Assembly (NCBI GenBank): GCA_040757835.1
Contig: JBFLWJ010000003.1
Coordinates: 146,960 to 210,959 of the forward strand
Source: Actinomycetota bacterium
Lineage (GTDB): Bacteria; Actinomycetota; Geothermincolia; Geothermincolales; RBG-13-55-18
Length of the DNA stretch: 64,000 nucleotides
Direction: 5' to 3'
Of the stretch, positions 2,080 through 45,970 are shown piece after piece. The notes beneath the pieces are model-generated. The model saw only the letters and a list, made by a program, of their open reading frames with translations. It was not told the DNA's origin and ran no database searches. The translations under genes and the position numbers were made by a program. Position 1 is the stretch's first letter; the number at the start of each line of letters is the position of its first letter.

Positions 2080-4032
2080 TTAGTCTCCGGCGATACCGCT
2101 CTGAACCTGGCCCGGCGGGATGCCGAAGACGTGCTCGAGGATGCGCCGGGCTACCGGAGCGGCCATGGCGCCCCCGAAACCGCCCTCCTCGATCATCACC
2201 ACCACCACGTACTGAGGGTTATTGGCGGGCGCGTAACAGGCGAACCACGCGCAGGGCTGCTTGCCCTGCACCTCCGCCGTCCCCGTCTTGCCCGCCACGG
2301 GGATCTGCGCCAGGGGAAACCCTGAAAAGGCCCCCGCCGCGGTACCGCCGCCCCAGGTGACCCCGGTAAGGGCGGAACGCACGACGTTCAGGTTGGCGGG
2401 GTCCACGGCGATGCCCAAGGGGTTGTCCCTGTTGGTGATGTCGCCGATCTGCTGCGGCTGGATGACCTCAAACGTCTCGCCCTGCCATGTCAGGACCTCC
2501 TTGCCCACGTGGGGGCGGAAGAAGGGGCCGCCGTTGGCGATGGCGGCGTAGGCGTTGGCGAGTTGCAGGGGGGTGACCAGGATGTCGCCCTGCCCCACCG
2601 CCATGTTGACCGTGTCCCCGGGATACCAGCGCTGGTAGTCGGGATTACCCTGGTTGAACTCCCACTTCCACTGCGGCGTCGGCACTCTGCCCTCGAACTC
2701 GTTCGGCAGGTCCACCCCGGTCTGCGACCCCAGACCGGCCAGCACCGAGTAATCCTGCAGGCGGGTCACCCAGCCGTCGCGCTCGCGGTTCTCGTAGAAA
2801 GAGTAGCCTAGATCGTAGAAGGTGACGTCGCACGACTCGATGATCGCGTTGGTAAAATCGATGCTTCCGTGGGTGCCCCAGCAGGTCTTGGGGAAGTCCT
2901 TGAACTCGCCGCGGTTGAAGACGTGGTTGCAGTAGAAGGGGGTGTAGGCGGTCACGCCCAGGTCTTGCAGGGCGGCCATGGCGGTGATCAACTTAAAAGT
3001 GGACCCCGGGGGGTACTGGCCCACGATGGCCCGGTTGTTCAGGGGGGCGTTGTTGGCGGGGTCGTTCAACTGTTCCCACTCCTGCTCGTCGATGCCCCCC
3101 ACGAAGCTCTCCAGATTGAAGGTGGGCTCGCTGGCCATGGCCAGGATCTCCCCGTTGCGCGGGTCGAGCACCACCGCCGCGCCGGCCGGCGCATTGTAGT
3201 TCTTGCCCCTCTCTTTGTCGTAGAAGGTGCGTGCGCGGGCCATCCCGTCCCGCAGCGCCTGCTCCGTCACCTTCTGCAGTTCCTTGTCCAGGGTAAGCAC
3301 CACCGACTTGCCGGGGTTACACTCCTCCTCCCCCAGCATCTGCAGGGGCATCCCCGCCGCGTCCACCTCCCATATCTTCTTGCCGTCCACGCCGCGCAGG
3401 ATGTCCTCGTAGAAGGCCTCCACGCCGGAGGTCCCCACGATGTCCCCCGCCTTGTAGCCCTTCTCCTGCAGGGTTTCCAGCTGTTCTTCCGTGATCTCTC
3501 CCAGGTAACCAAGGACGTGCGCCGCCAGGGTCTCCTCGCCCTCCTTATACTCGCGCACCGGCATCTCGTCCGCCTGCACCCAGGGGAAATGGACTTGCCT
3601 CTCCGAGATGTAGAAATAGACCTGAGGGTCGACGTCTTTCTTGATCAGCACCGGCTCGTGGGGCTGGACGTCCTCTCCCTGCACCTTGTCCATGATCTCC
3701 TGCGGTTCCATGCCCAGCATCTCCGCGAGGCGGGCCACCTCACCCTCCTTGTCCTCCAGTCTCTCGAACTCGGTGGGGAGCACGAAGACAGAGAGCGCCT
3801 GGCGGTTGATGACCATCTCCTGGTTGTTGCGGTCGAGGATGTTGCCGCGGCTCGCCTCGAGGGCCACCTCGCGGATGCGGTTGCCCTCGGCCATGGCGCT
3901 GTAGTTGTCGCCCTGTACCACCTGCAGGAACCACAACCGCACCACCAGCACGGCCACCAGCGCGCCCACGAACAGCACGAAGAGCGTGAAGCGGTGGACC
4001 ATGGCCCCTTTCTGCTGCGGGTTTATGGCCAT
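2080..4032 (-). CDS. mrdA: penicillin-binding protein 2 (class B transpeptidase)
   Basis: 650 aa with N-terminal TM, PBP dimerisation region and transpeptidase motifs (STFK, SxN, KTGT). Operon context mreBCD-pbp2-rodA. Confidence 0.9.
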   Translation of the reverse strand: MAINPQQKGAMVHRFTLFVLFVGALVAVLVVRLWFLQVVQGDNYSAMAEGNRIREVALEASRGNILDRNNQEMVINRQALSVFVLPTEFERLEDKEGEVARLAEMLGMEPQEIMDKVQGEDVQPHEPVLIKKDVDPQVYFYISERQVHFPWVQADEMPVREYKEGEETLAAHVLGYLGEITEEQLETLQEKGYKAGDIVGTSGVEAFYEDILRGVDGKKIWEVDAAGMPLQMLGEEECNPGKSVVLTLDKELQKVTEQALRDGMARARTFYDKERGKNYNAPAGAAVVLDPRNGEILAMASEPTFNLESFVGGIDEQEWEQLNDPANNAPLNNRAIVGQYPPGSTFKLITAMAALQDLGVTAYTPFYCNHVFNRGEFKDFPKTCWGTHGSIDFTNAIIESCDVTFYDLGYSFYENRERDGWVTRLQDYSVLAGLGSQTGVDLPNEFEGRVPTPQWKWEFNQGNPDYQRWYPGDTVNMAVGQGDILVTPLQLANAYAAIANGGPFFRPHVGKEVLTWQGETFEVIQPQQIGDITNRDNPLGIAVDPANLNVVRSALTGVTWGGGTAAGAFSGFPLAQIPVAGKTGTAEVQGKQPCAWFACYAPANNPQYVVVVMIEEGGFGGAMAAPVARRILEHVFGIPPGQVQSGIAGD

Positions 4033-4053
4033 GTCCTTATCACCTCACCGAGA

Positions 4054-4557
4054 TCATGGGAACATCAACGCCCTGTCCTCCTGGCCCGTGAAGTGCCTTA
4101 TCACCGGGTAGATGACCAGGGTGATCAGGGCGTTGTAAAGGGCCAGGCCGGCGATGACGCCGAAACTGAACGGGGGCCGCGGCTCCAGGCCCACCAGGGC
4201 CCAGGTGGCGAACTTCATTAACTCCTGCAGGATGGAGCCGAAGAAGACGATGATCATCGGCCAGATCACCGATTTGGAGATGACCCTCTGGCGCAGTTCC
4301 CCGCTGAAATAGCCGACGATGATCTTGGCGAAGGCCGAGACACCCACCACCGCGGTGGAGAAGATATCCTCCAGCAGGCCCGCACAGAAACCGAAGAGCG
4401 CCCCCTGTCCCGGGCCCTCGAAGAGCGCCCAGCAGATGGTGGCCACCAGCAGGATGTCCGGTTTCACCGCGCCTATGCCTATCTCCGGGGATACCGTGAG
4501 CTGGATGAGCAGGGCCACTACCAGCACCACGAAGAAGGTCAGCCTGCGGTGGACCAT
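4054..4557 (-). CDS. mreD: rod shape-determining protein MreD
   Basis: 167-aa small polytopic membrane protein directly after mreC. Confidence 0.8.
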   Translation of the reverse strand: MVHRRLTFFVVLVVALLIQLTVSPEIGIGAVKPDILLVATICWALFEGPGQGALFGFCAGLLEDIFSTAVVGVSAFAKIIVGYFSGELRQRVISKSVIWPMIIVFFGSILQELMKFATWALVGLEPRPPFSFGVIAGLALYNALITLVIYPVIRHFTGQEDRALMFP

Positions 4558-4558
4558 G

Positions 4559-5422
4559 CTATCCTCCCCCCTCGGCCGCCAGTGGCGTCGTGCTCGGTGG
4601 CGGCGAGACCACCACCATCACCCGGTCAAGGCGGGTCAGGCTCGCCCTGGGATCGATGACGATGCCCACGGAGAGGTCGGCGCGGCGTTCGCTGATCTCG
4701 GTGATGGTCCCGATGGGTATGCCGGAGGGGCAGGTCCCCCCGAGGCCTGATGTGACCACCACGTCCCCCGTCTTTACGTCCGCATCCTGGTTGAGGAGCT
4801 CGAGCCGCACGCCTCCCCTCCCCTCGCCTTTCACCACGCCCATCTCCGCGTTGGCCTGGAGCATGGCGCCCACCGAGCTCTTGTCGTCGGTGATCAGTTG
4901 CACCACCGACGCCTCGGAAGTACAGAGGATTATGCGCCCCACCAGGCTGCCGTCCTCGCTCAGGACCGCCATGTATTCCTGCAGGCCGTCGGAGTAACCG
5001 GCGCCTATCTGGATGGTCTGCTCCCATATGTCCGGGTTGGCCCCGATGACGTCCACCACCAGGAACCCCAGGTCGGACCGGCTCTCCTTCACGGCGATCA
5101 TACTCTTGAGAGTCTCGTTCTCCAGCTTCAGTTCCTCGCCCTCGTCCACTTCCTTCTGCAGCTTCTCGACCTCTTCGGCCAGGCGGTTCCGCTCGCTGTT
5201 TGCGTCTCCCAGGTCGGCCAGGTAGCCAAAGCCGTCTTTGACCGGACTCAGGACCTTGCTCATGCCCTTCTGCAGGGGGGAGACGATGTCCAGGGAGAAA
5301 CGCTGCAGGCGGTGGAAGAGCCCGTCCTTGCTCTCCCGCGAATACACGGTGACCAGGAGCACGCAGATGATTATCAGGGTGATTATCAATACGCGCTGTC
5401 TGCGGTTCTGTCTTTCGACCAT
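4559..5422 (-). CDS. mreC: rod shape-determining protein MreC
   Basis: 287 aa with N-terminal TM, coiled coil (EKLQKEVDEGEELKLENETLK) and C-terminal beta domain; immediately downstream of mreB. Confidence 0.85.
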   Translation of the reverse strand: MVERQNRRQRVLIITLIIICVLLVTVYSRESKDGLFHRLQRFSLDIVSPLQKGMSKVLSPVKDGFGYLADLGDANSERNRLAEEVEKLQKEVDEGEELKLENETLKSMIAVKESRSDLGFLVVDVIGANPDIWEQTIQIGAGYSDGLQEYMAVLSEDGSLVGRIILCTSEASVVQLITDDKSSVGAMLQANAEMGVVKGEGRGGVRLELLNQDADVKTGDVVVTSGLGGTCPSGIPIGTITEISERRADLSVGIVIDPRASLTRLDRVMVVVSPPPSTTPLAAEGGG

Positions 5423-5439
5423 GATATCTCAGCCCCGGT

Positions 5440-6480
5440 TTAATGCCGGGACGAGGAGATCAACACCTTCTTCATGATCTCGAACTCCTCGAGGCACTTC
5501 CCGGACCCGATGGCCACGTCCGAGAGCGGTGAACCGGTGACCTCCACCGGCATGGCCGTCTCATGGCGGAGCCTCTCGTCAAGCCCGGTCAGCAGGGCCC
5601 CTCCTCCCGTCAGCATTATCCCCCGGTCCATGATGTCCGATGCCAGCTCCGGGGGAGTCTTGTCCAGCGTGGTCTTGACCGCGTCGACGATGGCCGAGAT
5701 GGGTTCCTCTATGGCCTCCCGTATCTCCTCTGCCAGGACCACGATGGTCTTGGGGAGGCCGGTTACCAGGTCCCTCCCCCTTATCTCGGCGTTTATCTCG
5801 TCGCCCATGGGGAAGGCCGAACCGATCTGGATCTTGAGCTCCTCTGACGTCCTCTCCCCGATCATCAGGTTGTATTCCCTCTTGATGTAGTTGATGACCG
5901 ATTCGTCCAGTTCATCTCCGCCTATGCGGATGGACTCGCTAGTCACTATGCCTCCCAGAGAGATGACCGCCACTTCGGTGGTGCCTCCCCCGATGTCCAC
6001 GACCATGTTCCCGGTGGGCTCGTGGATGGGAAGGCCCGCTCCGATGGCCGCCGCCATGGGCTCCTCGATGATATAGGCGGCCCTTGCCCCGGCCTGGATG
6101 CAGGCCTCCTCCACCGCCCTCTGCTCCACTCCGGTGGTGCCGGAGGGCACGCAGACTACCACGCGCGGCCGGGCAAAAAGCCTCCTCTTGTGTACCTTCT
6201 GGATGAAATACCGCAACATCTTCTCGGTGACGTCGAAGTCCGCGATGACCCCGTCCCTCAGGGGACGTACGGCCACGATGTGTCCGGGCGTGCGGCCGAT
6301 CATCCTCTTGGCCTCCGCGCCCACCGCCAGGATGGCCCCATTGGAGGTGTTGATGGCCACCACTGAGGGCTCGTTGAGGACAATGCCCTTCCCGCGTACG
6401 TAAACCAGGGTATTGGCTGTCCCCAGGTCTATGGCCATGTCCCTTCCGAGCATCTCCCACGAAGAGAACACGTGGTTCAC
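5440..6480 (-). CDS. mreB: rod shape-determining actin homolog MreB
   Basis: Actin-fold motifs [40 protein letters not shown]. Start may be one of the downstream Mets (MLGRD.../MAIDLGT). Confidence 0.95.
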
Positions 6481-6673
6481 CTTTCCATCATATATTTGAC
6501 GGCCCGAAGGCCGCCTCTGTGCTTCAAATTATTCTATCATACACGGCTGATTACCCTCGTGACCTGCAATGATATTCGACGGCCCGCTCTACTTATCCTT
6601 GTTAGAGTGGCGAACCGCCCGGCCGGCCACAAGGGGATAGACGGGGCCCGCCAGATCGTTGTTCCCCCGGAGA

Positions 6674-7084
6674 TTACAGTTCCGGGAAGAACAGCGCCAC
6701 CTCCCGGGCGGCGCTCTCCGGCCCGTCGGACCCATGTACGATGTTCTCGGTTATCTCGAGCCCGTAGTCTCCTCTTATGGTCCCCGGTGGGGCATCGGCG
6801 GGATCGGTGGGGCCCATGAGTTTCCTGACCACGGCGATGGCCGTTTCGCCCTCCAGCACCATGGCCACCACCTCACCCGAGGTGATGAAGGAGACCAGTT
6901 CGGGATAGAATGGCTTGTCTATATGCTCGGCATAGTGGCGGGAGGCCAGCTCCTCGTCCACCTGCAGCAGCCGCATGGCTACGATCTTCAGGCCGAGGCG
7001 TTCGAAGCGCGAGATCACCTCCCCAGCCAGTCCCCTCCTCACGCCGTCCGGCTTTACCAGCACCAGGGTCCTCTCGCTCGGCAT
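6674..7084 (-). CDS. ndk: nucleoside diphosphate kinase
   Basis: 136 aa; [10 protein letters not shown]...[19 protein letters not shown]...NIVHGSD (active-site His region). Confidence 0.95.
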
Positions 7085-7127
7085 ATAAACCTCCGTTGTC
7101 TATAGCTTCCAGCAATAACTGTTCCGT

Positions 7128-7235
7128 GCGTACCCGTGCCAGGCCCGGCCGATCGGAATCGGCCGGGCGACTGGCACCGCCGCGTCGCCCTCCGGGCGCC
7201 GCTGTCGCCTACGCGCTTACGCGATGCAATCTATC
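7128..7235. repeat. copy D of an unrecognised structured intergenic element family ('S element'), inverted relative to copies A-C
   Basis: GTGCCAGGCC-CGGCCGATCGGAATCGGCCGGG-...GGCACCGCCGCG...CGCCCTCCGGGCG...CTTACGCGATGCAATC. Aligns at >80% (by eye) with the reverse complement of copy C (45592-45684). Lies in the folC-ndk spacer. Confidence 0.7.
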
Positions 7236-7262
7236 GTAACCTATTTTAGTAGTAGTTAGCGT

Positions 7263-8582
7263 TTATTCTGGGCGTAGCCCGAGGGCGCCGCGCGCCTCCC
7301 CCACCGTGTACAGCGAGCCGGTCACGCAGACCATGTCCGACACCGTCGCCATAGTGCGCGCGAACTTCACCGCCTCCGCCACGTCTTCCACCACCACGCA
7401 GTCATGCCCCATCTCCTTCACCAGGGCCGCCAGAGCGTGCGCCGGCATGGCGCGCTCGTCCGCGCTCTGAGTGACCACCGCCGTGGAGGCCAGGGGGAGG
7501 AGAAGCTCCAGCATGTTCCGCGCGTCCTTGTCCTCGAGTATTCCCACCACCAGGATGAGGTCGTCGTAGTCGAGGTCGTTGCTGATAACGTGCGCCAGCC
7601 TGCTCGCGCCGTCAGGGTTATGGGCCCCGTCGAGGAGTACCAGGGGATCGAGGGAGACCACCTCGAGGCGCCCCGGCGACTTCACCCTCTTCATCCCGGC
7701 CTCCACCTCCGTGGAGGACAGGGCCGAGAGCGAGCCCGCGTACGTCTCGCATGCCGCCACGGCACAGGCGGCGTTCATCGCCTGGTGCTCCCCCAGCAGG
7801 GGCACGAATAGTTCAGGATATTCCCGCAACAGGCCCTGGATGCCCACGGCCTGGCCTATTCTGCCCGTCTCCAGGCCGTAGGTCAGGTTATAGAGGAGCT
7901 GGAAGTCCCGGCCGAAGAGCCGGAGGGTGCTCCCCTTTTCATCGCAGGTTCGGGAGATCACCTCCAGGGCTGCCGGGTCGCTAACCGCGGAGATGACGTA
8001 ACTGTCCTCCTTGATGATGCCCGCCTTCTCGCAGGCGATCTTCTCCAGGGTCCCGCCCAGTTCGGCCACGTGGTCAAGGGCCACGCCAGTGATCACCTGC
8101 AGGTGCGAATCGACCAGGGTGGTGGCGTCCCACCTGCCCCCCAGCCCCACCTCGATCACGCCGACATCCACTTTGAGCGCCGCGAAGTGCACGAAGGCCA
8201 TGGCCGTGGTGACCTCGAAATAGCTCAGTGGGTCGCCGGTCTCCGCGTCCGTCTCCTCCACCTGCGGGATGATCCTCTCCAGCAGCGCCGCGAAATCGCG
8301 CTCCGGCACCGGCCTGCCGTTTATGCAGATGCGCTCGGTCACGGACTGCATGTGCGGCGACGTATAGCGAGCCACCTTCTTCCCGCTCACCTCGAGGATG
8401 GAGGAGATCATGCGCGCGGTGGAGGTCTTGCCGTTGGTGCCGGTTATATGGATGGAGGGGAACTCCAGCTGCGGCTCCCCCAGCTTGGAGCAGAGCAGCC
8501 GAATACGGTCCAGGCTGGGCTTGATGCCGTGCCGGGCCGCCTGCCCCAGATACCGCTCCGCCGCCTTGAAATCCACCATCAA
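7263..8582 (-). CDS. folC: bifunctional folylpolyglutamate synthase / dihydrofolate synthase
   Basis: 439 aa; Mur-ligase-family P-loop ITGTNGKTST, ...LLDGAHNPDG. Classic valS-folC adjacency. Confidence 0.9.
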   Translation of the reverse strand: MMVDFKAAERYLGQAARHGIKPSLDRIRLLCSKLGEPQLEFPSIHITGTNGKTSTARMISSILEVSGKKVARYTSPHMQSVTERICINGRPVPERDFAALLERIIPQVEETDAETGDPLSYFEVTTAMAFVHFAALKVDVGVIEVGLGGRWDATTLVDSHLQVITGVALDHVAELGGTLEKIACEKAGIIKEDSYVISAVSDPAALEVISRTCDEKGSTLRLFGRDFQLLYNLTYGLETGRIGQAVGIQGLLREYPELFVPLLGEHQAMNAACAVAACETYAGSLSALSSTEVEAGMKRVKSPGRLEVVSLDPLVLLDGAHNPDGASRLAHVISNDLDYDDLILVVGILEDKDARNMLELLLPLASTAVVTQSADERAMPAHALAALVKEMGHDCVVVEDVAEAVKFARTMATVSDMVCVTGSLYTVGEARGALGLRPE

Positions 8583-8601
8583 CCTCTCTTATGGCGTTTA
8601 T

Positions 8602-8726
8602 GGGGTCGGTTCTTGGATTTTGGATACTCCGGTATGTTTGCGATCAGCACAGAAAAACACCGCTTCCATACAGGCACTTTGCTTTAGATACCATATTATG
8701 GAATCCAAGATCCAAGACCTGACCCC
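8602..8726. repeat. MITE/ERIC-like element R1 with ~30-bp terminal inverted repeats (GGGGTCRGKTCTTGG...CCAAGACCTGACCCC)
   Basis: Left end GGGGTCGGTTCTTGGATTTTGGATACTCCGGTATG; right end ATGGAATCCAAGATCCAAGACCTGACCCC. Fills the valS-folC spacer. Two further copies at 35073-35197 and 39190-39313. Confidence 0.75.
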
Positions 8727-8727
8727 T

Positions 8728-11406
<2,679 letters not shown>

Positions 11407-16431: not shown

Positions 16432-16519
16432 TGGTGCGAGAGGGGGGACTCGAACCCCCACGGTCATAAAACCACTGGGTCCTAAGCCCAGCGCGTCTAC
16501 CATTCCGCCACTCTCGCCC
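16432..16519 (-). tRNA. tRNA-Leu (anticodon TAG), long variable arm, encoded CCA
   Basis: rc = GGGCGAGAGTGGCGGAATGGTAGACGCGCTGGGCTTAGGACCCAGTGGTTTTATGACCGTGGGGGTTCGAGTCCCCCCTCTCGCACCA; cloverleaf with anticodon loop CU-UAG-GA. Confidence 0.9.
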
Positions 16520-16613
16520 GATTATCCGGGGTTCAAGAACGATAAATATACTACTACTTGCATAAAGACGAGGCAAACAGCCGCATCAGCGCCGCATCGG
16601 GTCACGACGGCCA

Positions 16614-16790
16614 GCATCGCGTAAGTAAGGTTTTCGCCTAGCGAAAGCCTCATTGCGGGAAGTGGAGCGACGTGGCAACCTCGATTGGGTCTTGCGCTGA
16701 AAAAATGGGGGGCTGGAGCGCGACGGCGCCAGTCGCCTGGACGATTCCGATCGTCCAGGCCTGGCACATATGCTCCGGGATGCAACGACC
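16614..16790. repeat. copy A of unrecognised structured intergenic element family ('S element'), long form
   Basis: ATCGCGTAAG...GGAGCGACGTGGCAACCTCGAT...GGAGCGCGACGGCGCC...CGCCTGGACGATTCCGATCGTCCAGGCCTGGCACATATGCTCCGGG. Between divergent tRNA-Leu and tRNA-Arg. Homologous to 36344-36500, 45592-45684 and inverted 7128-7235. Confidence 0.7.
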
Positions 16791-16808
16791 CATGCAACTG
16801 TTTTCAAG

Positions 16809-16817
16809 TGCTATAAT
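16809..16817 (+). promoter_or_regulatory. extended -10 promoter (TGcTATAAT) for tRNA-Arg/tRNA-His
   Basis: GTGCTATAATCTCCTTGCGGAACGTG; hexamer ends 15 nt before the tRNA-Arg mature 5' end. The same TGCTATAAT motif occurs upstream of tRNA-Pro. Confidence 0.55.
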
Positions 16818-16832
16818 CTCCTTGCGGAACGT

Positions 16833-16908
16833 GCGCCTGTAGCTCAAAGGATAGAGCAGCGGACTTCTAATCCGCAGGTTGGAGGTTCGAGTCCTCCCAG
16901 GCGTGCCA
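16833..16908 (+). tRNA. tRNA-Arg (anticodon TCT), encoded CCA
   Basis: GCGCCTGTAGCTCAAAGGATAGAGCAGCGGACTTCTAATCCGCAGGTTGGAGGTTCGAGTCCTCCCAGGCGTGCCA; anticodon loop CU-TCT-AA. Confidence 0.9.
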
Positions 16909-16918
16909 GAAAGAACGT

Positions 16919-16994
16919 GGTGGGCGTAGCTCAGCCGGAAGAGCACTGGGTTGTGGCCCCAGAGGTCGCGGGTTCAAGTCCCGTCGCTCACCCC
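16919..16994 (+). tRNA. tRNA-His (anticodon GTG) with encoded G-1 and CCA
   Basis: G-GTGGGCGTAGCTCAGCCGGAAGAGCACTGGGTTGTGGCCCCAGAGGTCGCGGGTTCAAGTCCCGTCGCTCACCCCA; the extra 5' G pairs with discriminator C73 (His identity element). Confidence 0.9.
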
Positions 16995-19955: not shown

Positions 19956-20032
19956 GGTCGGGGTGGGCGGATTTGAACCGCCGACCTCATGCTCCCAAAG
20001 CATGCGCGCTAACCAAGCTGCGCTACACCCCG
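19956..20032 (-). tRNA. tRNA-Pro (anticodon TGG), encoded CCA
   Basis: rc = CGGGGTGTAGCGCAGCTTGGTTAGCGCGCATGCTTTGGGAGCATGAGGTCGGCGGTTCAAATCCGCCCACCCCGACCA; anticodon loop UU-TGG-GA. Confidence 0.9.
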
Positions 20033-20040
20033 TCGCCATG

Positions 20041-20049
20041 ATTATAGCA
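20041..20049 (-). promoter_or_regulatory. extended -10 promoter (TGcTATAAT) for tRNA-Pro
   Basis: Minus strand reads GATGCTATAATCATGGCGACGG then the tRNA 5' end; hexamer ends 8 nt before the mature 5' end. Identical 9-mer to the tRNA-Arg promoter. Confidence 0.55.
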
Positions 20050-20094
20050 TCGCCTTTGCCGGTGGCGTTCTATGCTAATATATCCTCGTGGCGA

Positions 20095-20170
20095 GCGGGA
20101 GTAGCTCAGATGGAAGAGCGAGAGCCTTCCAAGCTCTAGGTCGCGGGTTCGAGGCCCGTCTCCCGCTCCA
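20095..20170 (+). tRNA. tRNA-Gly (anticodon TCC), encoded CCA; insertion target of a genomic islet
   Basis: GCGGGAGTAGCTCAGATGGAAGAGCGAGAGCCTTCCAAGCTCTAGGTCGCGGGTTCGAGGCCCGTCTCCCGCTCCA; anticodon loop CU-TCC-AA. Confidence 0.9.
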
Positions 20171-26567: not shown

Positions 26568-26600
26568 GTCCTACGCCGGTGGCCGGCGATGCGTAGCGCT

Positions 26601-26624
26601 GGGGCCAGCATTTATACTGGCCCC
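26601..26624. terminator. bidirectional hairpin between convergent genes
   Basis: GGGGCCAG-CATTTATA-CTGGCCCC between the GMC oxidoreductase (+) stop and the MBL hydrolase (-) stop. Confidence 0.5.
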
Positions 26625-26707
26625 AGTCGCCGTTACATGTGTATTGCGTTGGACCTATGGATCCCCAAACGGCATAGCAGATCCGAACTTCCAGGGCCGA
26701 GGTTGGA

Positions 26708-29205: not shown

Positions 29206-29550
29206 GGGGGCGAAACGGCTTCGACAGGGATCGGCGGACAGCGCGGGAGCGAGCCGGGGGCCCGAGCCTCGTCAGCAATCGGGAAAACAAAATAAACGCT
29301 GACAGCGAGTTAGCACTGGCTGCGTAAGCGGCCCGTCCCTCTCCGGGGGGCCCGCGACCGGGGAAGGGGCGTCATGCAGCGGGATCACCGAGGCCCCACT
29401 CCCGTTAAGGCCGAGGGACAGCTTTCCGGGATAGCCGACGGCAGGCCTTTCGCCGGGCGCGCCGGCGGTGAAAAATAAGCGGCGAATACGCTCGTAGAGC
29501 CCACCTGGCCGGGTTTCTGGACGGGGGTTCGACTCCCCCCGCCTCCACCA
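29206..29550 (+). ncRNA. ssrA: tmRNA (ssrA)
   Basis: 5' GGGGGCGAAACGGCTTCGACAGGG pairs with 3' ...GGACGGGGGTTCGACTCCCCCCGCCTCCACCA (tRNA-like domain, T-arm GGTTCGACTCC). Internal tag ORF ...GCT GAC AGC GAG TTA GCA CTG GCT GCG TAA (...ADSELALAA*). Confidence 0.9.
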
Positions 29551-29586: not shown

Positions 29587-29610
29587 GGGGTCAGGATTTT
29601 TCCTGACCCC
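29587..29610 (+). terminator. hairpin downstream of tmRNA built from the GGGGTCAGG motif
   Basis: GGGGTCAGG-ATTTTT-CCTGACCCC; weak downstream U-tract. Confidence 0.5.
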
Positions 29611-34935: not shown

Positions 34936-35072
34936 CCGTTGCCCAGACCTTTGTCCCGTGACGCGAGTAAACCCTCCAGGCTCTCGAGGGAGTAGTTTAT
35001 CACGCTCAGAGGAGCCACGTCAGTTCCCGTGATATTTCGACCGCGCGAAAAGATTCTCCTGCAAAATCCAAG

Positions 35073-35197
35073 GGGTCAGGTCTTGTCTCTTGGATACTCC
35101 GGTATGTATTCCATTAAATACCATATTTCACCTCGTTAACCAGCGCTTTTGTAAGCAGCATTCCGATGTGCGCATCATAAAAACAAGACCTTACCCC
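35073..35197. repeat. MITE/ERIC-like element R2
   Basis: GGGGTCAGGTCTTGTCTCTTGGATACTCCGGTATG...CATAAAAACAAGACCTTACCCC; fills the tkt-prfB spacer, abutting the prfB stop. Confidence 0.7.
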
Positions 35198-36299
35198 TTA
35201 ACGCGCGGCTTTCCAGCGCAGGTAGGCGTCTATGAGTTCGTCGAGGTCGCCGTCGAGCACCGCGTCCACGTTGCCTATCTCCAGGTCGGTGCGGTGGTCC
35301 TTGGCCATGCGGTAGGGGTGCAGCACGTAGGAGCGTATCTGGCTCCCGAAACCGATGCCCATCTTCTCCCCCCGCAGCTTCTCGATCTCCTTCTCGCGCT
35401 CGCGGCGGGCGAGGTCGGCGAGGCGGGCCTCGAGGATACGCATGGCCGTGGCGCGGTTGGATATCTGCGAGCGCTCGTTCTGGCACGACACCACCACTCC
35501 CGTGGGCAGGTGGGTGATGCGCACGGCGGAGTCGGTGACGTTGACGTGCTGCCCTCCAGCACCGCTCGAACGGTAGGTCTCGACCCGCAAGTCCTTGGGG
35601 TCGATCTCGATGCTCTCCTCCTTGTCCAGCATGGGGATCACGTCCAGGGACGCGAAGGAGGTGTGACGGCGGCTCGAGGCGTCGTAGGGGGATATGCGCA
35701 CCAGGCGGTGCACGCCTTTCTCGGAGAGGAAGAGCCCGTAAGCGAAGCGGCCGTGTACGGTGAAGGTGGCGCTCTTGATGCCGCCGCCCTCGCCCGGCTG
35801 CAGGTCGTTGAGATCGGCCTTGAAGCCGCGCGCGTCGGCCCAGCGCAAGTACATTCGCAGCAGCATCTCCGCCCAGTCCTGCGACTCCAGACCCCCGGCC
35901 CCGGGGTGGATGCTGACGATGGCGTCGTGGGAGTCGAACTCGCCCGAGAGCAGGCTCTCCTCCTCGAGGCGGTCCACCTCCCGCTGCAGCCTGGCTACAC
36001 CCTTCCCGATATCGGTGGTCAGGCTGGCATCGTTCTCGTCTTGCGCCAGTTGAGCGAGCTCCTCGAGTTCCCTCCGCTCCGACGCCAGCCTCTCCCAGGT
36101 CTCCACGGTGTCCTTTAAAGCCGAGAGCCGCCCCAGGACGCGGCGTGCGTTGTCCTGGTCGTCCCAGAGGTCCGGGCGGGCGGACTCTTTCTCCAACTCC
36201 TCCGCCTCCGCCCGCTTTCCCTCTATGTCAAAGATACTCCTTTATCTTGACCAGCCTTCCCGCGATCTCCTCCAGCTCGCTGCGGTAATCACTCAGCAC
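35198..36299 (-). CDS. prfB: peptide chain release factor 2, requires programmed +1 ribosomal frameshift
   Basis: Frame 0: GTG(36299) LSDYRSELEEIAGRLVKIKEYL then CTT-TGA-C. +1 frame continues DIEGKRAEAEELEKESARPDLWDD... through SPYD and GGQHVNVTDSAVRITHLPTGV (GGQ motif). ORF-track lists only the 332-aa downstream frame. Confidence 0.9.
36224..36245 (-). promoter_or_regulatory. RF2 autoregulatory +1 frameshift site: internal SD (AGGAG) + CUU UGA C
   Basis: Minus strand: AAAGGAGTATCTTTGACATAG; SD-like AGGAG 3 nt upstream of CUU, in-frame UGA followed by C. This is the canonical RF2 frameshift signature. Confidence 0.85.
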
Positions 36300-36343: not shown

Positions 36344-36500
36344 TATCGCGTAAGCCAGCCCTTTCGCGAAGCGGAAGGCATATTGCGAGGAGGCGAAGCC
36401 GTCGTGGCAAGCTCGATAGACCGGCACGCCTCAACATGATGCCTCCTCGCGGCGGTGTCCAGCGCCAGTCCCGGCGCTTCCAGGCCTGACCTGGCACGTG
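36344..36500. repeat. copy B of 'S element' (long form), in the secA-prfB spacer
   Basis: TATCGCGTAAGCCAGCCCTTTCGCG...GCGAGGAGGC...GCCTCCTCGC...GGCGGTGTCCAGCGCCAGTCCCGGCGCTTCCAGGCCTGACCTGGCACGTGTACG. 3' end runs into the secA stop codon; 5' end is ~45 nt from the prfB GTG. Confidence 0.7.
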
Positions 36501-36507
36501 TACGTCC

Positions 36508-39189: not shown

Positions 39190-39313
39190 GGGGTCAGGTC
39201 CTGTCTTTTACCTATTACGCCGTGAAGGCGTACACATAAGTGCTGGTCACAAGCGGGCATATGCCCAAAGCCCCTTGAGATACCCGAGTATCCAAGAAAC
39301 AAGACCTGACCCC
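39190..39313. repeat. MITE/ERIC-like element R3
   Basis: GGGGTCAGGTCCTGTCTTTTACC...GAGATACCCGAGTATCCAAGAAACAAGACCTGACCCC; in the spacer between the HD-protein gene and secA. Confidence 0.7.
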
Positions 39314-39324
39314 TTAGACGGGGG

Positions 39325-40710
39325 TTAGTCCTCGTCCCTGAATATCTCCTCGAAACTCTCCTTCAGCTCTTCCTCCTCCAGCACCCTGGCCCTCTGCGTG
39401 ATCTCCCTCTCCGGCCGCCGGCGTGCCTTCGTCTGGGACTCCACCACCTGCGAGAGGGTACGCAGCACGATGGAATCGTAGAGCTTGCCCCGCTCCATGC
39501 TCATCTCCTCCAGGGCCTCCTGGGGAGCGAGCGCCTTCTTCGGCTGGCTGGTCAGCACGTCGTAATCGCTGACCACACCGATTATCTTCGACCCCGTGGG
39601 GATGTGTGCGGTTCCCGCCTCCAGGTCGGAGGCCGGGTGGCAATGCCGGACGATGTGAGCGATGGGCCGCAGGCGCGCCACCTGCTCCAGCACCTCGGCC
39701 CCCTTCTCGGCATGGCCGGGGGCTTCCACGTCACCCTCGTACTCTATGCGCCCGATATCGTGCAGGGCGGCCGCATACCGGATGTTGCGCGTCTCCTCCG
39801 CCGACACGCCCATCTCCCGCGCCACCTCCGCCGCAAGGTTGCTCACGCGGCCGGAATGCCCCGGCAGGCCACGGGAGATGTCGAAGGCATCGCCGACCAC
39901 GCGCATGGTCTGGAAATACCTCTCGTCGAGCTCCTTGTCCCGGTTCGATTCCAGGCGCACCAGCAGCAGGGGGATGAAGAAGATGAGGAAGTTCAACCAG
40001 GGCACGCGCGGAAAGTACAGGGCCATGAGGGCCCCCGCGCCGGTGATGGCCAGGTAGATGGGAAGGGTCTGCCGCATGTGCTGGGGCAGCACGATACGCC
40101 AGTTGCCGCCCAGCTGCATAGAGGTCTCGATGGACGAGGTGAGCATCTCACCCAGGTAGAAGACGAGGGCCATGACCAGAAAGGCGATGGGGAACACCAG
40201 GGCCCTCTGCAGTACAACCGGATTGTAATAGGTGTGGAACTCCAGGACCCCGTTGGTCACCGTGGCGGGACCGGGGCCGTAGAGGGTGGCGGGGTAAGGA
40301 TTCCATATCGCCTCCCATCCGAGGTTGGCGATGAACTGATAGATGACCCCGGCCAGAGCCACTATGTAGGTGCGCTGCACGATGTGGAAAAAATCGCCTT
40401 CGCCCGAGCGTTGGATACGCGCGAAAGCCCGGCCCAGCAGGCTTCCCACCAGGAAGATGAAGACCACTTCCGGCACCGGCCGGATGGCGATGATGCACAG
40501 GACGGCGGCCATGCCCAGGCGCAGGGGCCTCCCCCAGGGGAACTGCACCCTCCATGCCTCGCAGAAGGCGAGTACCGCCACCAAGCCGAAGGTGCGCGCG
40601 GGGTCCATGTCCCCCAGCTTTGAGAAGAAGAAGGGGGCACACACCCCCAGGGTCACCAGGAAGATGGCGACGGAGACGTACTGCAGCGCCTTCATGCGCT
40701 TGTCGTTCAT
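39325..40710 (-). CDS. membrane-anchored HD-domain protein (7TM-receptor-with-HD-hydrolase architecture; HD-GYP signature degenerate)
   Basis: ~250-aa polytopic N-terminal domain, then HD domain (...ALHDIGRI...). The HHExxDGxGYP motif is not conserved (RHCHPASDLEAGTAH). Confidence 0.7.
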   Translation of the reverse strand: MNDKRMKALQYVSVAIFLVTLGVCAPFFFSKLGDMDPARTFGLVAVLAFCEAWRVQFPWGRPLRLGMAAVLCIIAIRPVPEVVFIFLVGSLLGRAFARIQRSGEGDFFHIVQRTYIVALAGVIYQFIANLGWEAIWNPYPATLYGPGPATVTNGVLEFHTYYNPVVLQRALVFPIAFLVMALVFYLGEMLTSSIETSMQLGGNWRIVLPQHMRQTLPIYLAITGAGALMALYFPRVPWLNFLIFFIPLLLVRLESNRDKELDERYFQTMRVVGDAFDISRGLPGHSGRVSNLAAEVAREMGVSAEETRNIRYAAALHDIGRIEYEGDVEAPGHAEKGAEVLEQVARLRPIAHIVRHCHPASDLEAGTAHIPTGSKIIGVVSDYDVLTSQPKKALAPQEALEEMSMERGKLYDSIVLRTLSQVVESQTKARRRPEREITQRARVLEEEELKESFEEIFRDED

Positions 40711-42941: not shown

Positions 42942-43428
42942 CCCCCGCACTCCCTTCTCCTCCGATAAAAAACCCATACCAGGTTCAAGGGCGGTATGGG
43001 CCTTCTTCAGGACCTATTCGAAAAGCAAATCCCGGCCCCGGGCCTTAACCCGGCGCTTACGTATTCGACTCGCATAAGCCTAGCATACGTCCAACCCTCT
43101 GCCAACAAATGGCCCGAAAAGTGAAGGCCTCGAAACCCGGCTGACCTGGTCTTTGACCCCACACTCGCCTGCCGAGCGTCTCGCAGCGGAAGGGATCCCG
43201 CGCGGGCTTTGCCCGACCGCCACTAATGCGCTTCTCCGGTTTGTTCCGGGCAGGTCTTACCCCTAAGCCGCACCATGCTCACCAACCAAGAGTTGGCTTA
43301 CGTGGGTCGTTTCGCCTGCGGCTGGCATCGACTTTCAACCACAGACCCGGGCCGAAGCCTTCCCATACATTATAAGGTGAGCGCCTGTGATATGCACATG
43401 AACCGGCCTGTGCGTCCGAGTCACGGAG

Positions 43429-45510
43429 CTATGGCATGGAGGCCGGCAGCGGCGGGTACGAGGGGTTCTCGGCCTGCCACCGCTTGTATGCGGACCAGGA
43501 GGCGTGGGGAGTGCCGTCGTAGCTGAAGAGGCCGAAATAACTCTTGTCCCAAGACCTGCCCGGTTTCTCGTCCATGTCCTTGTAGACCCAGATCTTGCGG
43601 CATCCCGCCCGCCTCAGGAGGCCGATGCCCCAGTCCCCGATGGCGTCGGCCTGCCCCTGCCCGCTGAACATATCCGGCTGGTCGTCCTTGTGGTGGAGCC
43701 AGCCTATCTCCGTGGCGGCGACCTCCTTCTCCACCCCGATGGAGCGCATCGCCTGGACCAGGTTGGCATAGAAGGGCCCCCAGTTGCCGGGGCTGCGGTA
43801 GGGGTGGACCCCTACCATATCGCAGTGCTCGTTGAAGCCCAGCATGTCCCCGGCCGCCACCTCGACCCCGGCGAGTGCTTGCAGGAGCACTTCCTTGTGC
43901 AGCGCCTCTCCCCTGCCCATGGCGAAATCGAGGCCGGCCCGCACCGGCCGCTCTCCCCCGTTCCACAGGCTGATGACGTCGCGCATGGAGAACTGGTTGT
44001 AGCCAGCCGGGAAATCCCACCGGGTGCGGGGCTCGCCCGCGCCCCGCGAAGTATACTCACCGCTGCATGAATCGCCGCAGTAGAAACGGGGCGATAACTC
44101 CGCCACCAGGGGTGCGCTGCCGCGGACTTCGATGGACGCTCCGCCCGCGCAGGATGCCCCGGTGACTCCCGGAGCCACGGACACCCTCCCGCACGACTGC
44201 GCCGCCACCTCCACGTGCCTGTTCTCGCTTGAGCCGTCCGGGAAGCGGTATACGATCTCCGCCTCGACCGCCTGCGACCCGGTGTTCAGAAGGCTCAGGA
44301 ACTCCTTTACGGTGTAGTCCCCGGAGCCGTCCTCGCAGGCCCACTCCCGGCGCGGCGAATAGGCGTCTGGCTCGCCGTTCCGCTCCTTCACGGTGCCCCC
44401 CTGGCGGTAGTAGAGCGAGCGCTCCGCTATGATGGGCCGGTCCGACGAGACCGCGATGGACACCTCGCCCAGCTTGGAGTCGTGCCTACCCACACCCAGC
44501 CCCTCGTCGAAGACGGGAAAGACCAGGCTCGACCTCGCCGGCACCCTGATATTCCGGCTCTCACTGGTGCCGTTACCGCGGAAGTATGTGATGGCCACCG
44601 CGGCTTCCTGCCGCTCCCGGTTATCAAGGGAGAGCCACATGTCGCAGCCGGACCTGGTGCAGCCCTCCGCGAAGAACCACCGGGTCCTCCCCGGGTCGAT
44701 GCCCATGAGGCCGTCCGCAAGCAGTCCGTCCCGGGAACAGACGAGGCGGAGCGTGCGTGCGGCCACGATGTCGCCGTCCGCCCTCACCGTGAGCGCGGCC
44801 TCCTGGCGGGGGCGCGAGGCATCGTCGAAGAGGCGGGTGTAGAGGCCGGTGCCCGTGTCCGGGTCGTCCGCCAGCGTGTCGAGCAGGGAGCCGCAGATGA
44901 CGATTCCCGAGGGGTCCTTTTCCTTGATGGCGGTATACGCCAGTTGCAGGAGGGGCAGGTAGTCCGTCTCCACCTGGCCCCCGAAATGATAGGTCCCGAG
45001 CAGACGGTAGGCTTCTCCATCGCTGTCCCAGCCCGGCTCGTTCCATACCTCGTAGAAGTCCACTACCGGACCGTAGCGTTCGGCGGCCGCCGCGCAGAAG
45101 TCGCGCCAGCGCCCCAGGTCCGCGGGCGGGGCCTTGTCTGCGAACTCTCCATAAGCCGCGTCCCTGGCCCATGCGGGGATGGGCCCGCCCAGGACCAGCA
45201 TTATGGACTGGCTTCCGTCCGCGAGGACCGCGCCTATCAGCTCGTCGTAGCGGCTCCAGTCAAAGGGCCCCGCCTGGGGCTGCACGTTCCTCCACCTCAC
45301 CTCGATCTTGTGGTGGCGGATCCAGCGCCTCTCCTCGAGGGGTACCTTGGCAAGGGTCCTGCTGTTGTACCCCGGCACGTCCAGGCCGAGGATGGTCCAG
45401 TCGGCTACGTCTTTCCTGCCGCCCGCACCATCGCCACCGTAGATGGGTGTTCCAGGAACGAGCAGGGCGGCGAAAAAGATGAGCACGAGCACGATGAACC
45501 GGACTCTCAT
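43429..45510 (-). CDS. secreted glycoside hydrolase, clan GH-A (GH5/GH39-like) catalytic residues with three internal ~100-aa repeats
   Basis: Signal peptide MRVRFIVLVLIFFAALLVPG; acid/base motif FYEVWNEPGW; nucleophile motif VAATEIGW ~440 residues later. The intervening region has three similar modules (RWFFAEG...LSLDN..., EWACEDG...LSLLN..., RWDFPAG...ISLWN...). Start at Met56 of ORF with GGGAGGAG SD. Confidence 0.7.
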   Translation of the reverse strand: MRVRFIVLVLIFFAALLVPGTPIYGGDGAGGRKDVADWTILGLDVPGYNSRTLAKVPLEERRWIRHHKIEVRWRNVQPQAGPFDWSRYDELIGAVLADGSQSIMLVLGGPIPAWARDAAYGEFADKAPPADLGRWRDFCAAAAERYGPVVDFYEVWNEPGWDSDGEAYRLLGTYHFGGQVETDYLPLLQLAYTAIKEKDPSGIVICGSLLDTLADDPDTGTGLYTRLFDDASRPRQEAALTVRADGDIVAARTLRLVCSRDGLLADGLMGIDPGRTRWFFAEGCTRSGCDMWLSLDNRERQEAAVAITYFRGNGTSESRNIRVPARSSLVFPVFDEGLGVGRHDSKLGEVSIAVSSDRPIIAERSLYYRQGGTVKERNGEPDAYSPRREWACEDGSGDYTVKEFLSLLNTGSQAVEAEIVYRFPDGSSENRHVEVAAQSCGRVSVAPGVTGASCAGGASIEVRGSAPLVAELSPRFYCGDSCSGEYTSRGAGEPRTRWDFPAGYNQFSMRDVISLWNGGERPVRAGLDFAMGRGEALHKEVLLQALAGVEVAAGDMLGFNEHCDMVGVHPYRSPGNWGPFYANLVQAMRSIGVEKEVAATEIGWLHHKDDQPDMFSGQGQADAIGDWGIGLLRRAGCRKIWVYKDMDEKPGRSWDKSYFGLFSYDGTPHASWSAYKRWQAENPSYPPLPASMP

Positions 45511-45591
45511 CGCAAACGCCCCACGCCCTTTTCTCCTCCCGGTTTTTGTCCTGCCGTGATTATAAGGTATATCGTCTGCCTCCGCTGATTG

Positions 45592-45684
45592 CATCGCGTA
45601 AGCGACAGCGACGCCCTGAGGGCGGCGCGGCGGTGTCCCAGCGCCTGGACATTTCCGAATGTCCAGGCCTGGCACGTGTACGTA
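45592..45684. repeat. copy C of 'S element' (short form), in the long 5' leader of the GH gene
   Basis: CATCGCGTAAGCGACAGCGACGCCCTGAGGGCGGCGCGGCGGTGTCCCAGCGCCTGGACATTTCCGAATGTCCAGGCCTGGCACGTGTACG. Confidence 0.7.
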
Positions 45685-45970
45685 CGGTGATAGTGGCCCG
45701 GGAAACTACCAGGTCGGCCGAAACTGTGCATAGAGATGGTTCATGGATAGCGATCCCGCCCGGGTGTCGCCCATACAAACCCCCCGGCAAGCACGGCTGC
45801 TTGCGGGAAAGGTCGGCAAGCCCGGTTCGTCAAGGCGTTCGGGCGACCTCGTCTGTGCTGCCCCTTGCCCGGCGAGCAAGGTGCTCGGAGGAGCCTGCGA
45901 CGACGACCAGCCTTGTCGCCGGGCCGCTAAAACGGTATTGGAGTGAGCCCGAACGCCTCTCCGTCCCGGA

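Follow-up and report, generated by a model that had tools for sequence, protein, structure and literature searches.

Introduction

To our knowledge, work on REP-type repeats and their domesticated tyrosine transposases has been confined almost entirely to Proteobacteria. Abundant flanking repeats are found only with RAYT groups 2 and 3, whose reference genera are Escherichia and Pseudomonas (Bertels, 2017; PMC5581495), and TnpAREP has been shown to cleave single-stranded REPs at CT beside the hairpin (PMC8266576). Di Nocera, De Gregorio and Rocco (2013; PMC3733652) described RAYT-like genes with flanking terminal inverted repeats, and named the genes TIRYTs and the loci TIRtrons. Many TIRYT repeats have the consensus GGGGWSAS, the repeat families were termed "moderately abundant" and occur as singles, dimers or groups, and TIRYTs were judged "less productive" than RAYTs (PMC3733652). 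In the classification of Quentin et al. (2018; PMC6006769), most TIRYTs fall into TnpAY1 subclass 2.1, whose members have HTH-type domains at the C-terminus, and no REP-like sequences were reported near subclass 2.1 genes. The C-terminal extensions of TIRYTs are of the Bac_DnaA_C, HTH_23 or HTH_28 type. A text search of the RAYT/TIRYT classification papers found no mention of Actinobacteria.

Here we analyse three hairpin elements, R1–R3, in a 64-kb stretch of Actinomycetota DNA (the window) and in related genomes. We conclude that they probably belong to a TIRYT-mobilised, REPIN-like doublet family of terminal inverted repeats, in a TIRtron system.

Results

Three elements between co-directional genes

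The elements and the features that bound them are as follows, in window coordinates.

8602..8726, + strand: element R1, 125 nt, A-end at 8602, between the valS stop and the start of a folC-type gene
8602..8637, + strand: R1 A-arm (the "left-end" module), comprising the 14-nt terminus, TTTTGGAT and the small hairpin ATACTCCGGTAT; conserved
8702..8726, + strand: R1 B-arm, ATCCAAGATCCAAGACCTGACCCC, which pairs with the A-arm
8599..8601, + strand: TAT, an instance of the preferred TA(A/T) flank, immediately 5' of the R1 A-end
8728-8730, − strand: valS stop, 1 nt from the R1 B-end
8582: start of the folC-type gene, bounding the R1 spacer
35072..35197, + strand: element R2, 126 nt, A-end at 35072, B-end directly against the prfB stop
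35198-35200, − strand: prfB stop, 0 nt from the R2 B-end
34950..35051, − strand: PHP-domain gene remnant (last ~35 codons), located by tblastn with the PHP protein of a relative (L057)
39190..39313, − strand: element R3, 124 nt, A-end at 39313, between the stop of an HD-domain gene and the secA start
39314..39316, − strand: TAA flank, immediately 5' of the R3 A-end
39325-39327: HD-domain gene stop, the upstream bound of the R3 spacer
39123: secA start, the other bound of the R3 spacer

The termini of R1–R3 are near-identical (GGGGTCAGGTCTTG and CAAGACCTGACCCC, in elements of 124–126 nt), and each of the six ends has 0–2 mismatches to GGGGTCAGGTCTTG. R3 is in the opposite orientation to R1 and R2, and all three lie inside co-directional gene pairs. 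The TAA beside the R3 A-end is not the stop codon of the HD gene, which is 8 nt further upstream.

Pfam searches of the neighbouring genes identified ValRS, a Mur-ligase/FolC-type protein, a transketolase N subunit, a PCRF/RF-1 protein (prfB, RF-2) and an HD-domain protein, and the SecA identity of the remaining R3 neighbour was confirmed separately; the gene names given in the original prediction were thus right. Its coordinates for R1 (8602-8726) and R3 (39190-39313) also stood, while R2 starts one base earlier than it had placed it, and the length of 105–125 bp that it gave is replaced by 124–126 nt for all three copies. It had described R2 as lying in a tkt–prfB spacer against the prfB stop, and R1 as adjoining the valS stop. 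R2 does touch the prfB stop and the two genes are as named, but the 102-nt PHP-domain gene remnant comes first downstream of R2 and tkt only after it; the R1 B-end is separated from the valS stop by a single nucleotide.

We found 13 matches to GGGGTCAGGTCTTG in the window at up to 3 mismatches, against 9.3 expected, and the seven beyond R1–R3 are at chance level, so that only the three end pairs of R1–R3 are real. An nhmmer profile built from 41 copies recovered exactly R1, R2 and R3 (E-values 6e-27 to 9e-23) and revealed no further or degenerate copies elsewhere in the window. Two near-matches, at 29587 and 11541, were rejected as copies by both the end-match count and the profile search. At the Rfam gathering threshold the window gave seven matches, none of which overlaps R1–R3. 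The matches, which are unrelated to the elements, are a raiA RNA (167 bits), a tmRNA and five tRNAs (RNA sites at 43132-43355 (−), 29206-29550 (+), 16435-16992 and 19958-20167). A literature search for the two 14-mer ends found no paper containing either.

A large family in a related genome

The metagenome-assembled genome "uncultured Actinomycetota binchicken_co7_176" (CAYPZH01) has ~84% nucleotide identity to the window and a similar GC content (63% in CAYPZH01, 64% in the window). The nearest named relatives of the window genome are Candidatus Solincola (~80% SecA identity) and Geothermincolales (77%). When one genome per species was scanned with the 24-nt end pattern GGGGTCRGKTCYTGNNTNTTGGAT, 51 stretches were recovered, 47 of them from CAYPZH01. 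Pairing of the ends gave at least 58 complete elements in the CAYPZH01 stretches, and with the three window copies a total of 61; the count is a minimum, since it covers only the 8-kb surroundings of exact matches. The elements fall into three size classes of 84-88, 107 and 124-127 nt.

Conserved arms, a variable interior and a strong predicted fold

The elements are asymmetric, with distinct A- and B-ends. In the A-end, GGGGTCAGGTCTTG-NN-TTTTGGAT leads into a small hairpin, ATACYNNRGTAT, and then GT. The B-end reads ATCCAAAA-NN-CAAGACCTGACCCC, and a looser CCATAWTATGG hairpin often lies ahead of it. Conservation extends to a short motif, CAG...TTT, in the centre of the element. In a 41-copy alignment, mean pairwise identity was 90% in the A-arm (columns 1–36) and 86% in the B-arm, and 38% in the interior. 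Within the 125-nt class the median identity of an interior to its nearest neighbour was 56% and no pair exceeded 76%; with so little shared interior, recent copying is not visible in that class. Length is nevertheless steady at 124–127 nt despite the nearly random interior. The 85-nt class is more homogeneous, with an interior identity of 66%.

R1, R2 and R3 each fold as a long hairpin of −44 to −61 kcal/mol, and their z-scores relative to shuffled sequence range from −4.8 to −6.6. The terminal stem is paired in 94% of alignment cells yet is almost invariant, which points to recognition of its sequence and not of structure alone. We found no convincing structural covariation, as RNA or as single-stranded DNA, in the copy alignment: the consensus fold contains no pair with a compensatory change, and in a fuller structure both sides change only in the variable dinucleotide, in one further stem column and in the weak B-hairpin, which are paired in ~58–68% of cells. 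The variable dinucleotide (columns 15–16), paired in ~60–65% of copies, covaries only in part, and the B-side hairpin is paired in 58%. An intrinsic terminator was rejected for R1–R3, in which neither end has a T/U run directly after the GC-rich stem on the transcribed strand.

Insertion without duplication, often next to TA(A/T) and near stop codons

No target-site duplication was detected, since the lengths of repeats shared by the element flanks were the same as in a re-paired control; the TTTAT found on both sides of R1 was considered as a duplication and is within chance. TAA or TAT precedes 31 of the 61 A-ends and 11 of the 61 B-ends; their background frequency in unannotated DNA is 2.3%. 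Single-strand transposition of the IS200/IS605 type gives rise to such a one-sided flank preference without duplication.

A stop codon lies within −3 to +11 nt of one end in 45 of the 61 copies (stop-codon statistics use GC3-filtered ORF calls made for this analysis, not gene-finder calls). The adjoining stops are TAA in 28 of 53 cases, compared with 53 of 272 elsewhere (p=1.4e-6), and they face the A-end in 35 cases and the B-end in 18. A preference for sites 3' of TA(A/T) would place many copies directly against TAA stop codons. Sixty of the 61 copies lie outside predicted genes, the sole exception probably being a miscalled ORF, and the gene contexts are convergent for 21 copies, tandem for 31 and divergent for 4. 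For eight convergent pairs the element makes up the whole intergenic gap. Tandem copies have the A-end first in 22 cases and the B-end first in 9, and the window copies are divided 1 to 2 in their orientation to transcription. Orientation showed no bias with respect to local GC skew (34 versus 27) or gene-strand excess (32 versus 29).

The same ends bracket a Y1 HUH transposase gene

We found no TIRYT gene within the 64-kb window, and the link to a transposase therefore rests on relatives. On CAYPZH01 contig L045, a 277-aa ORF (605-1438) has one element on either side (330-456 and 1438-1562), the second of which overlaps the stop codon of the ORF. A Y1 HUH transposase gene flanked by the same termini is present in CAYPZH01 and in three further relatives. 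The L045 protein scored 81.9 bits (cut-off 80) against NCBIfam NF047646, "REP-associated tyrosine transposase", and 38.8 bits (cut-off 23) against Pfam Y1_Tnp, and the HUH motif (H60-Y-H62) and the catalytic Y119 are invariant in 20 homologues. A single-sequence search of the PDB gave no match; in a profile search the best match was 4ER8, E. coli TnpAREP. The same structure was the best fold match of an AlphaFold model of the protein (pLDDT 84.7; E=1e-6, TM 0.73), followed by the ISDra2 and IS608 TnpA proteins. Residues 230–276 form a confident helical C-terminal domain in the model (pLDDT 87–93). The L045 protein has no Pfam HTH match at E≤0.01, a homologue (L007) matches HTH_38/23/28 below the family cut-offs, and several other homologues carry precomputed HTH_23, HTH_38 or HTH_28 matches.

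Homologues that are 76% and 60% identical have the same synteny, and the same ends beside the gene. The conserved order is molybdopterin oxidoreductase, transposase gene, phosphoglycerate-mutase-like gene and TrkA, with proteins 60–100% identical, and this shared synteny suggests that the transposase locus is fixed and vertically inherited. GGGGTCAG ends are present on both sides of the gene in L045, L052–L055, L056 and L061; L062–L064 have an intact left end and a right repeat truncated after CAAGACCTGA. Among the loci examined, which come from three phyla, all genes bracketed by these ends encode Y1 enzymes, and no DDE transposase has the same ends.

A GGTAT(G/A) motif occurs 30–37 nt inside the left end in three phyla (L056 2952-2992, L061 1454-1500 and the A-ends of all copies). 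In two tightly bracketed transposase loci it is at the position of a −10 box, 17 nt after TTGCCT or TTTACT. This placement suggests that the left end may carry a transposase promoter.

Related ends in other phyla and on phage-like DNA

In Syntrophales and Bipolaricaulota sp. J31, homologues with ~52% identity have the same 13-14-mer closely on both sides, in the form GGGGTCAGGTCTT(G/T) ... (C/A)AAGACCTGACCCC, with the TGA stop inside the right repeat. A C-terminus of the form K-T-stop, which is the ending expected from AAG ACC TGA of the right repeat, was found in 49 of the best 120 transposase homologues. In a Desulfomonilaceae genome, a truncated homologue is accompanied by degenerate copies of the same ends.

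Unrelated bacteria also have short, isolated, perfect hairpins (51–57 nt) with the same arms. One, in a Rheinheimera genome (L017 2359-2409), lies between convergent clpB and chemotaxis-receptor genes, and another, in an unclassified genome (L036 2251-2307), lies upstream of a terminase-like ORF. Between the structural genes of the phage-like viral contig IMGVR_UViG_3300029286_003067 (L065; 1871-7249) lie five 55-nt hairpins that have the same 14-nt arms, four of the five followed by GGAG; the Mu-type major capsid ORF of this contig is at 6295-7266. The observation also covers L066 and L067. The copies on the viral contig suggest one possible route of spread between phyla.

Occupied and empty sites in relatives

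CAYPZH01 contig L044 is syntenic with window positions 2082-10086 (83.6% identity) and carries an orthologue of R1 at 1360-1483, at the same valS–folC site and in the same orientation. The two copies are 92% identical in the arms and 66% in the interior, which argues that the arms are constrained in place. The R2 and R3 sites have no element in four relatives with 84–89% SecA identity (L057–L060), in which the same operons are kept. In the closest relative, with 92% SecA identity, the R2 site is a 17-nt gap, as judged from gene coordinates. At the R3 site, L059 and L060 have no element, and L057/L058 have only a degenerate hairpin. This hairpin (2878-2940, AGGGTCAGGGCTCAT...ATGAGCTCCGGCCCT) could be a decayed copy in which both arms changed together.

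Four relatives have an intact 249-aa PHP-domain gene between prfB and tkt. The remnant beside R2 corresponds to residues 210–244 of the L057 PHP protein (63% identity, E=2.8e-6 by tblastn); with only the last 35 codons left, R2 marks a deletion of ~650 bp.

Two further differences and repeats were seen in these comparisons. A 748-aa ORF of the window (43429-45675, − strand), which has no Pfam match and separates the raiA RNA from the conserved gene that comes next, is absent from the syntenic CAYPZH01 contig, which has ~290 bp with an 85-nt element in its place (L021 3931-4220). A second, unrelated hairpin repeat family with the core GTGCCAGGCC...GGCCTGGCAC occupies several spacers of the window (7124-7215, 16719-16767 and 45595-45687; also 26581-26706 and 36448-36505). 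It is present in a related genome (L038 7177-7288, L043 3404-3482, L014 1955-2202) and in the prfB–PHP spacer of relatives (L057 6800-6870; L059 ~7000-7250, twice in tandem), and may represent a further REP-like family served by an enzyme of its own.

Discussion

The GGGGTCAG ends fit the GGGGWSAS consensus of TIRYT repeats (PMC3733652; PMC6006769) and have no 5' GTAG, and for these reasons we file the elements as REPIN-like doublets of terminal inverted repeats of a TIRtron and not as canonical REPs. As in described TIRtrons, the enzyme is a RAYT-like Y1 HUH protein, here with a helical, putatively HTH-type C-terminal extension; the gene lies between inverted repeats of the GGGGWSAS type, the right one overlapping the stop codon; and the same repeats are dispersed in the genome, here as dimers. 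There are also differences. The host is an uncultured, little-studied Actinomycetota lineage related to Geothermincolia, and the family is large (at least 58 doublets in CAYPZH01, besides the 3 in the window) and has three fixed size classes, whereas published families are "moderately abundant". Repeats are present next to the gene, unlike the subclass 2.1 genes of Quentin et al. (PMC6006769), and the stop-codon placement and TA(A/T) flank are not described in the available parts of PMC3733652 and PMC6006769.

REPIN–RAYT systems or REPtrons (Nunvar, 2010, PMC2817692; Bertels and Rainey, 2011, PMC3116915; Bertels, 2017, PMC5581495) likewise consist of inverted doublets that form hairpins, are extragenic and number tens to hundreds of copies. 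They too have a flanked Y1 transposase gene at one locus that is syntenic across species, and copies that persist at orthologous sites without target duplication. The present elements differ in that they begin with GGGG and have the conserved 5' GT[AG]G tetranucleotide (GTAG/GTGG) at neither end, a single arm is not itself a palindrome, the spacer of ~75 nt is almost unconserved with no master sequence visible, and the enzyme has an extra putative HTH domain. With IS200/IS605 elements (IS608, ISDra2) and their miniature derivatives they share the Y1 HUH fold, the absence of target duplication, small hairpins near the ends and a sequence preference at one flank, like the TTAC of IS608. However, the two ends of an IS200/IS605 element do not form an inverted repeat, such elements have a strict target motif where only about half of the A-ends here have TA(A/T), and the lack of orientation bias relative to GC skew is unlike insertion of the IS608 type.

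In the TIRtron reading, R1–R3 would be non-autonomous doublets, and the enzyme gene would be chromosomal, at one conserved locus in each relative examined and with the same GGGGTCAGGTCTTG ends. Its product, a Y1 HUH tyrosine transposase with a putative C-terminal helix-turn-helix, would be a RAYT-like TIRYT and belong to TnpAY1 subclass 2.1. By analogy with IS200/IS605 and TnpAREP, this enzyme would recognise folded single-stranded ends, cut and rejoin them, and move the hairpins in trans; the literature consulted contained no biochemical work on any TIRYT (PMC3733652 only proposes assays), so the cutting mechanism rests on the analogy. Insertion would occur without target duplication and preferentially just 3' of TA(A/T), and inserted copies would be long-lived, the arms staying intact and the length being kept as the interior drifts. 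Given their co-directional setting, it is plausible that R1–R3 are co-transcribed into mRNA as strong stem-loops. Such stem-loops might affect mRNA 3' ends or translation termination, and a host-level role for hairpins next to stop codons is possible.

A stronger form of this last idea is that the elements are structural hairpins selected by the host, as terminators, mRNA stabilisers or modulators of translation termination, with mobility irrelevant or lost and the transposase link historical. The position of 45 of the 61 copies at most 11 nt from a stop codon, the eight that fill convergent gaps and the finding of only four between divergent genes would all fit such a role, as would the strong predicted folds, the constraint on the arms of the valS–folC orthologues and the length held at 124–127 nt around a nearly random interior. 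Yet no T-run follows the stems, orientation to transcription is mixed (22 versus 9 in tandem contexts, 1 versus 2 in the window), the stem is invariant and does not covary, as expected of sequence recognition rather than structure alone, and close relatives with the same operons have no element at the R2 and R3 sites. We therefore regard host selection as an unlikely account of the family by itself, and it is compatible with the TIRYT explanation as a secondary, exapted role.

The original prediction had classed the elements as a MITE/ERIC-like family. ERIC, Correia (NEMIS) and RUP elements make target duplications, and the copies within one such family are similar over their whole length. The present elements resemble them in size (~100–150 nt), in their terminal inverted repeats (14–24 nt) and many copies, and in an intergenic location, in operon spacers where they would be co-transcribed as hairpins; the TTTAT on both sides of R1 might also be taken to favour an internally deleted derivative of a DDE-transposase insertion sequence, moved by cut-and-paste. 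But the flank repeats do not exceed the re-paired control, the flank preference is one-sided, the interiors are far more diverged than the ends, so that full-length similarity is lacking, and these ends have been seen, in loci from three phyla, around no gene other than that of a Y1 HUH enzyme. A classical MITE is thus very improbable, and the class assignment of the prediction gives way to the TIRtron type, with its GGGGWSAS ends. Its more general proposal of a multi-copy, non-coding, inverted-repeat mobile family is borne out by the copies in CAYPZH01, and the parent element with the same inverted repeats that it called for exists in relatives as the bracketed Y1 transposase gene. The case that it named against itself, convergent terminator hairpins, is ruled out by that gene and by the relative with at least 58 copies. 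A multi-copy structured non-coding RNA gene or cis-regulatory RNA family is least probable of all, since its possible marks (the conserved arms, ATACYNNRGTAT hairpin and central CAG...TTT, the fixed length and the strong predicted fold) are set against the absence of an Rfam match at R1–R3, consensus-fold pairs without compensatory change, both-side changes confined to poorly paired columns, both orientations relative to neighbouring genes, and a transposase gene with the same ends.

Returning to the TIRYT-mobilised doublets, we advance a broader reading only tentatively, as one that may well prove wrong: that a TIRYT of subclass 2.1 keeps a long-lived, vertically inherited REPIN-like population in Actinomycetota of the Geothermincolia type, in which the arms are under selection at each site, length stays constant around a nearly random interior, and the placement next to stop codons serves the host, for example at mRNA 3' ends or in translation termination. 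If this is true, subclass 2.1 enzymes would have their first demonstrated abundant repeat population, and it would lie outside Proteobacteria. The occurrence of the same 14-nt end across at least three phyla, with isolated copies elsewhere and on a phage-like contig, would also be notable.

TIRYTs have no known activity in the literature and had been regarded as poor at spreading repeats. The present lineage provides a clear case of a TIRYT-type gene coexisting with a large doublet population, which has a readable insertion signature (no duplication, a 5' TA(A/T) flank and proximity to stop codons) and includes one copy at an orthologous site, two sites that are empty in relatives, and one copy at a deletion junction. 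For annotation, the family explains recurrent 85–127-nt "gaps" directly after stop codons in these genomes, and for the enzymes, its elements provide defined DNA on which a TIRYT could be tested biochemically for the first time.
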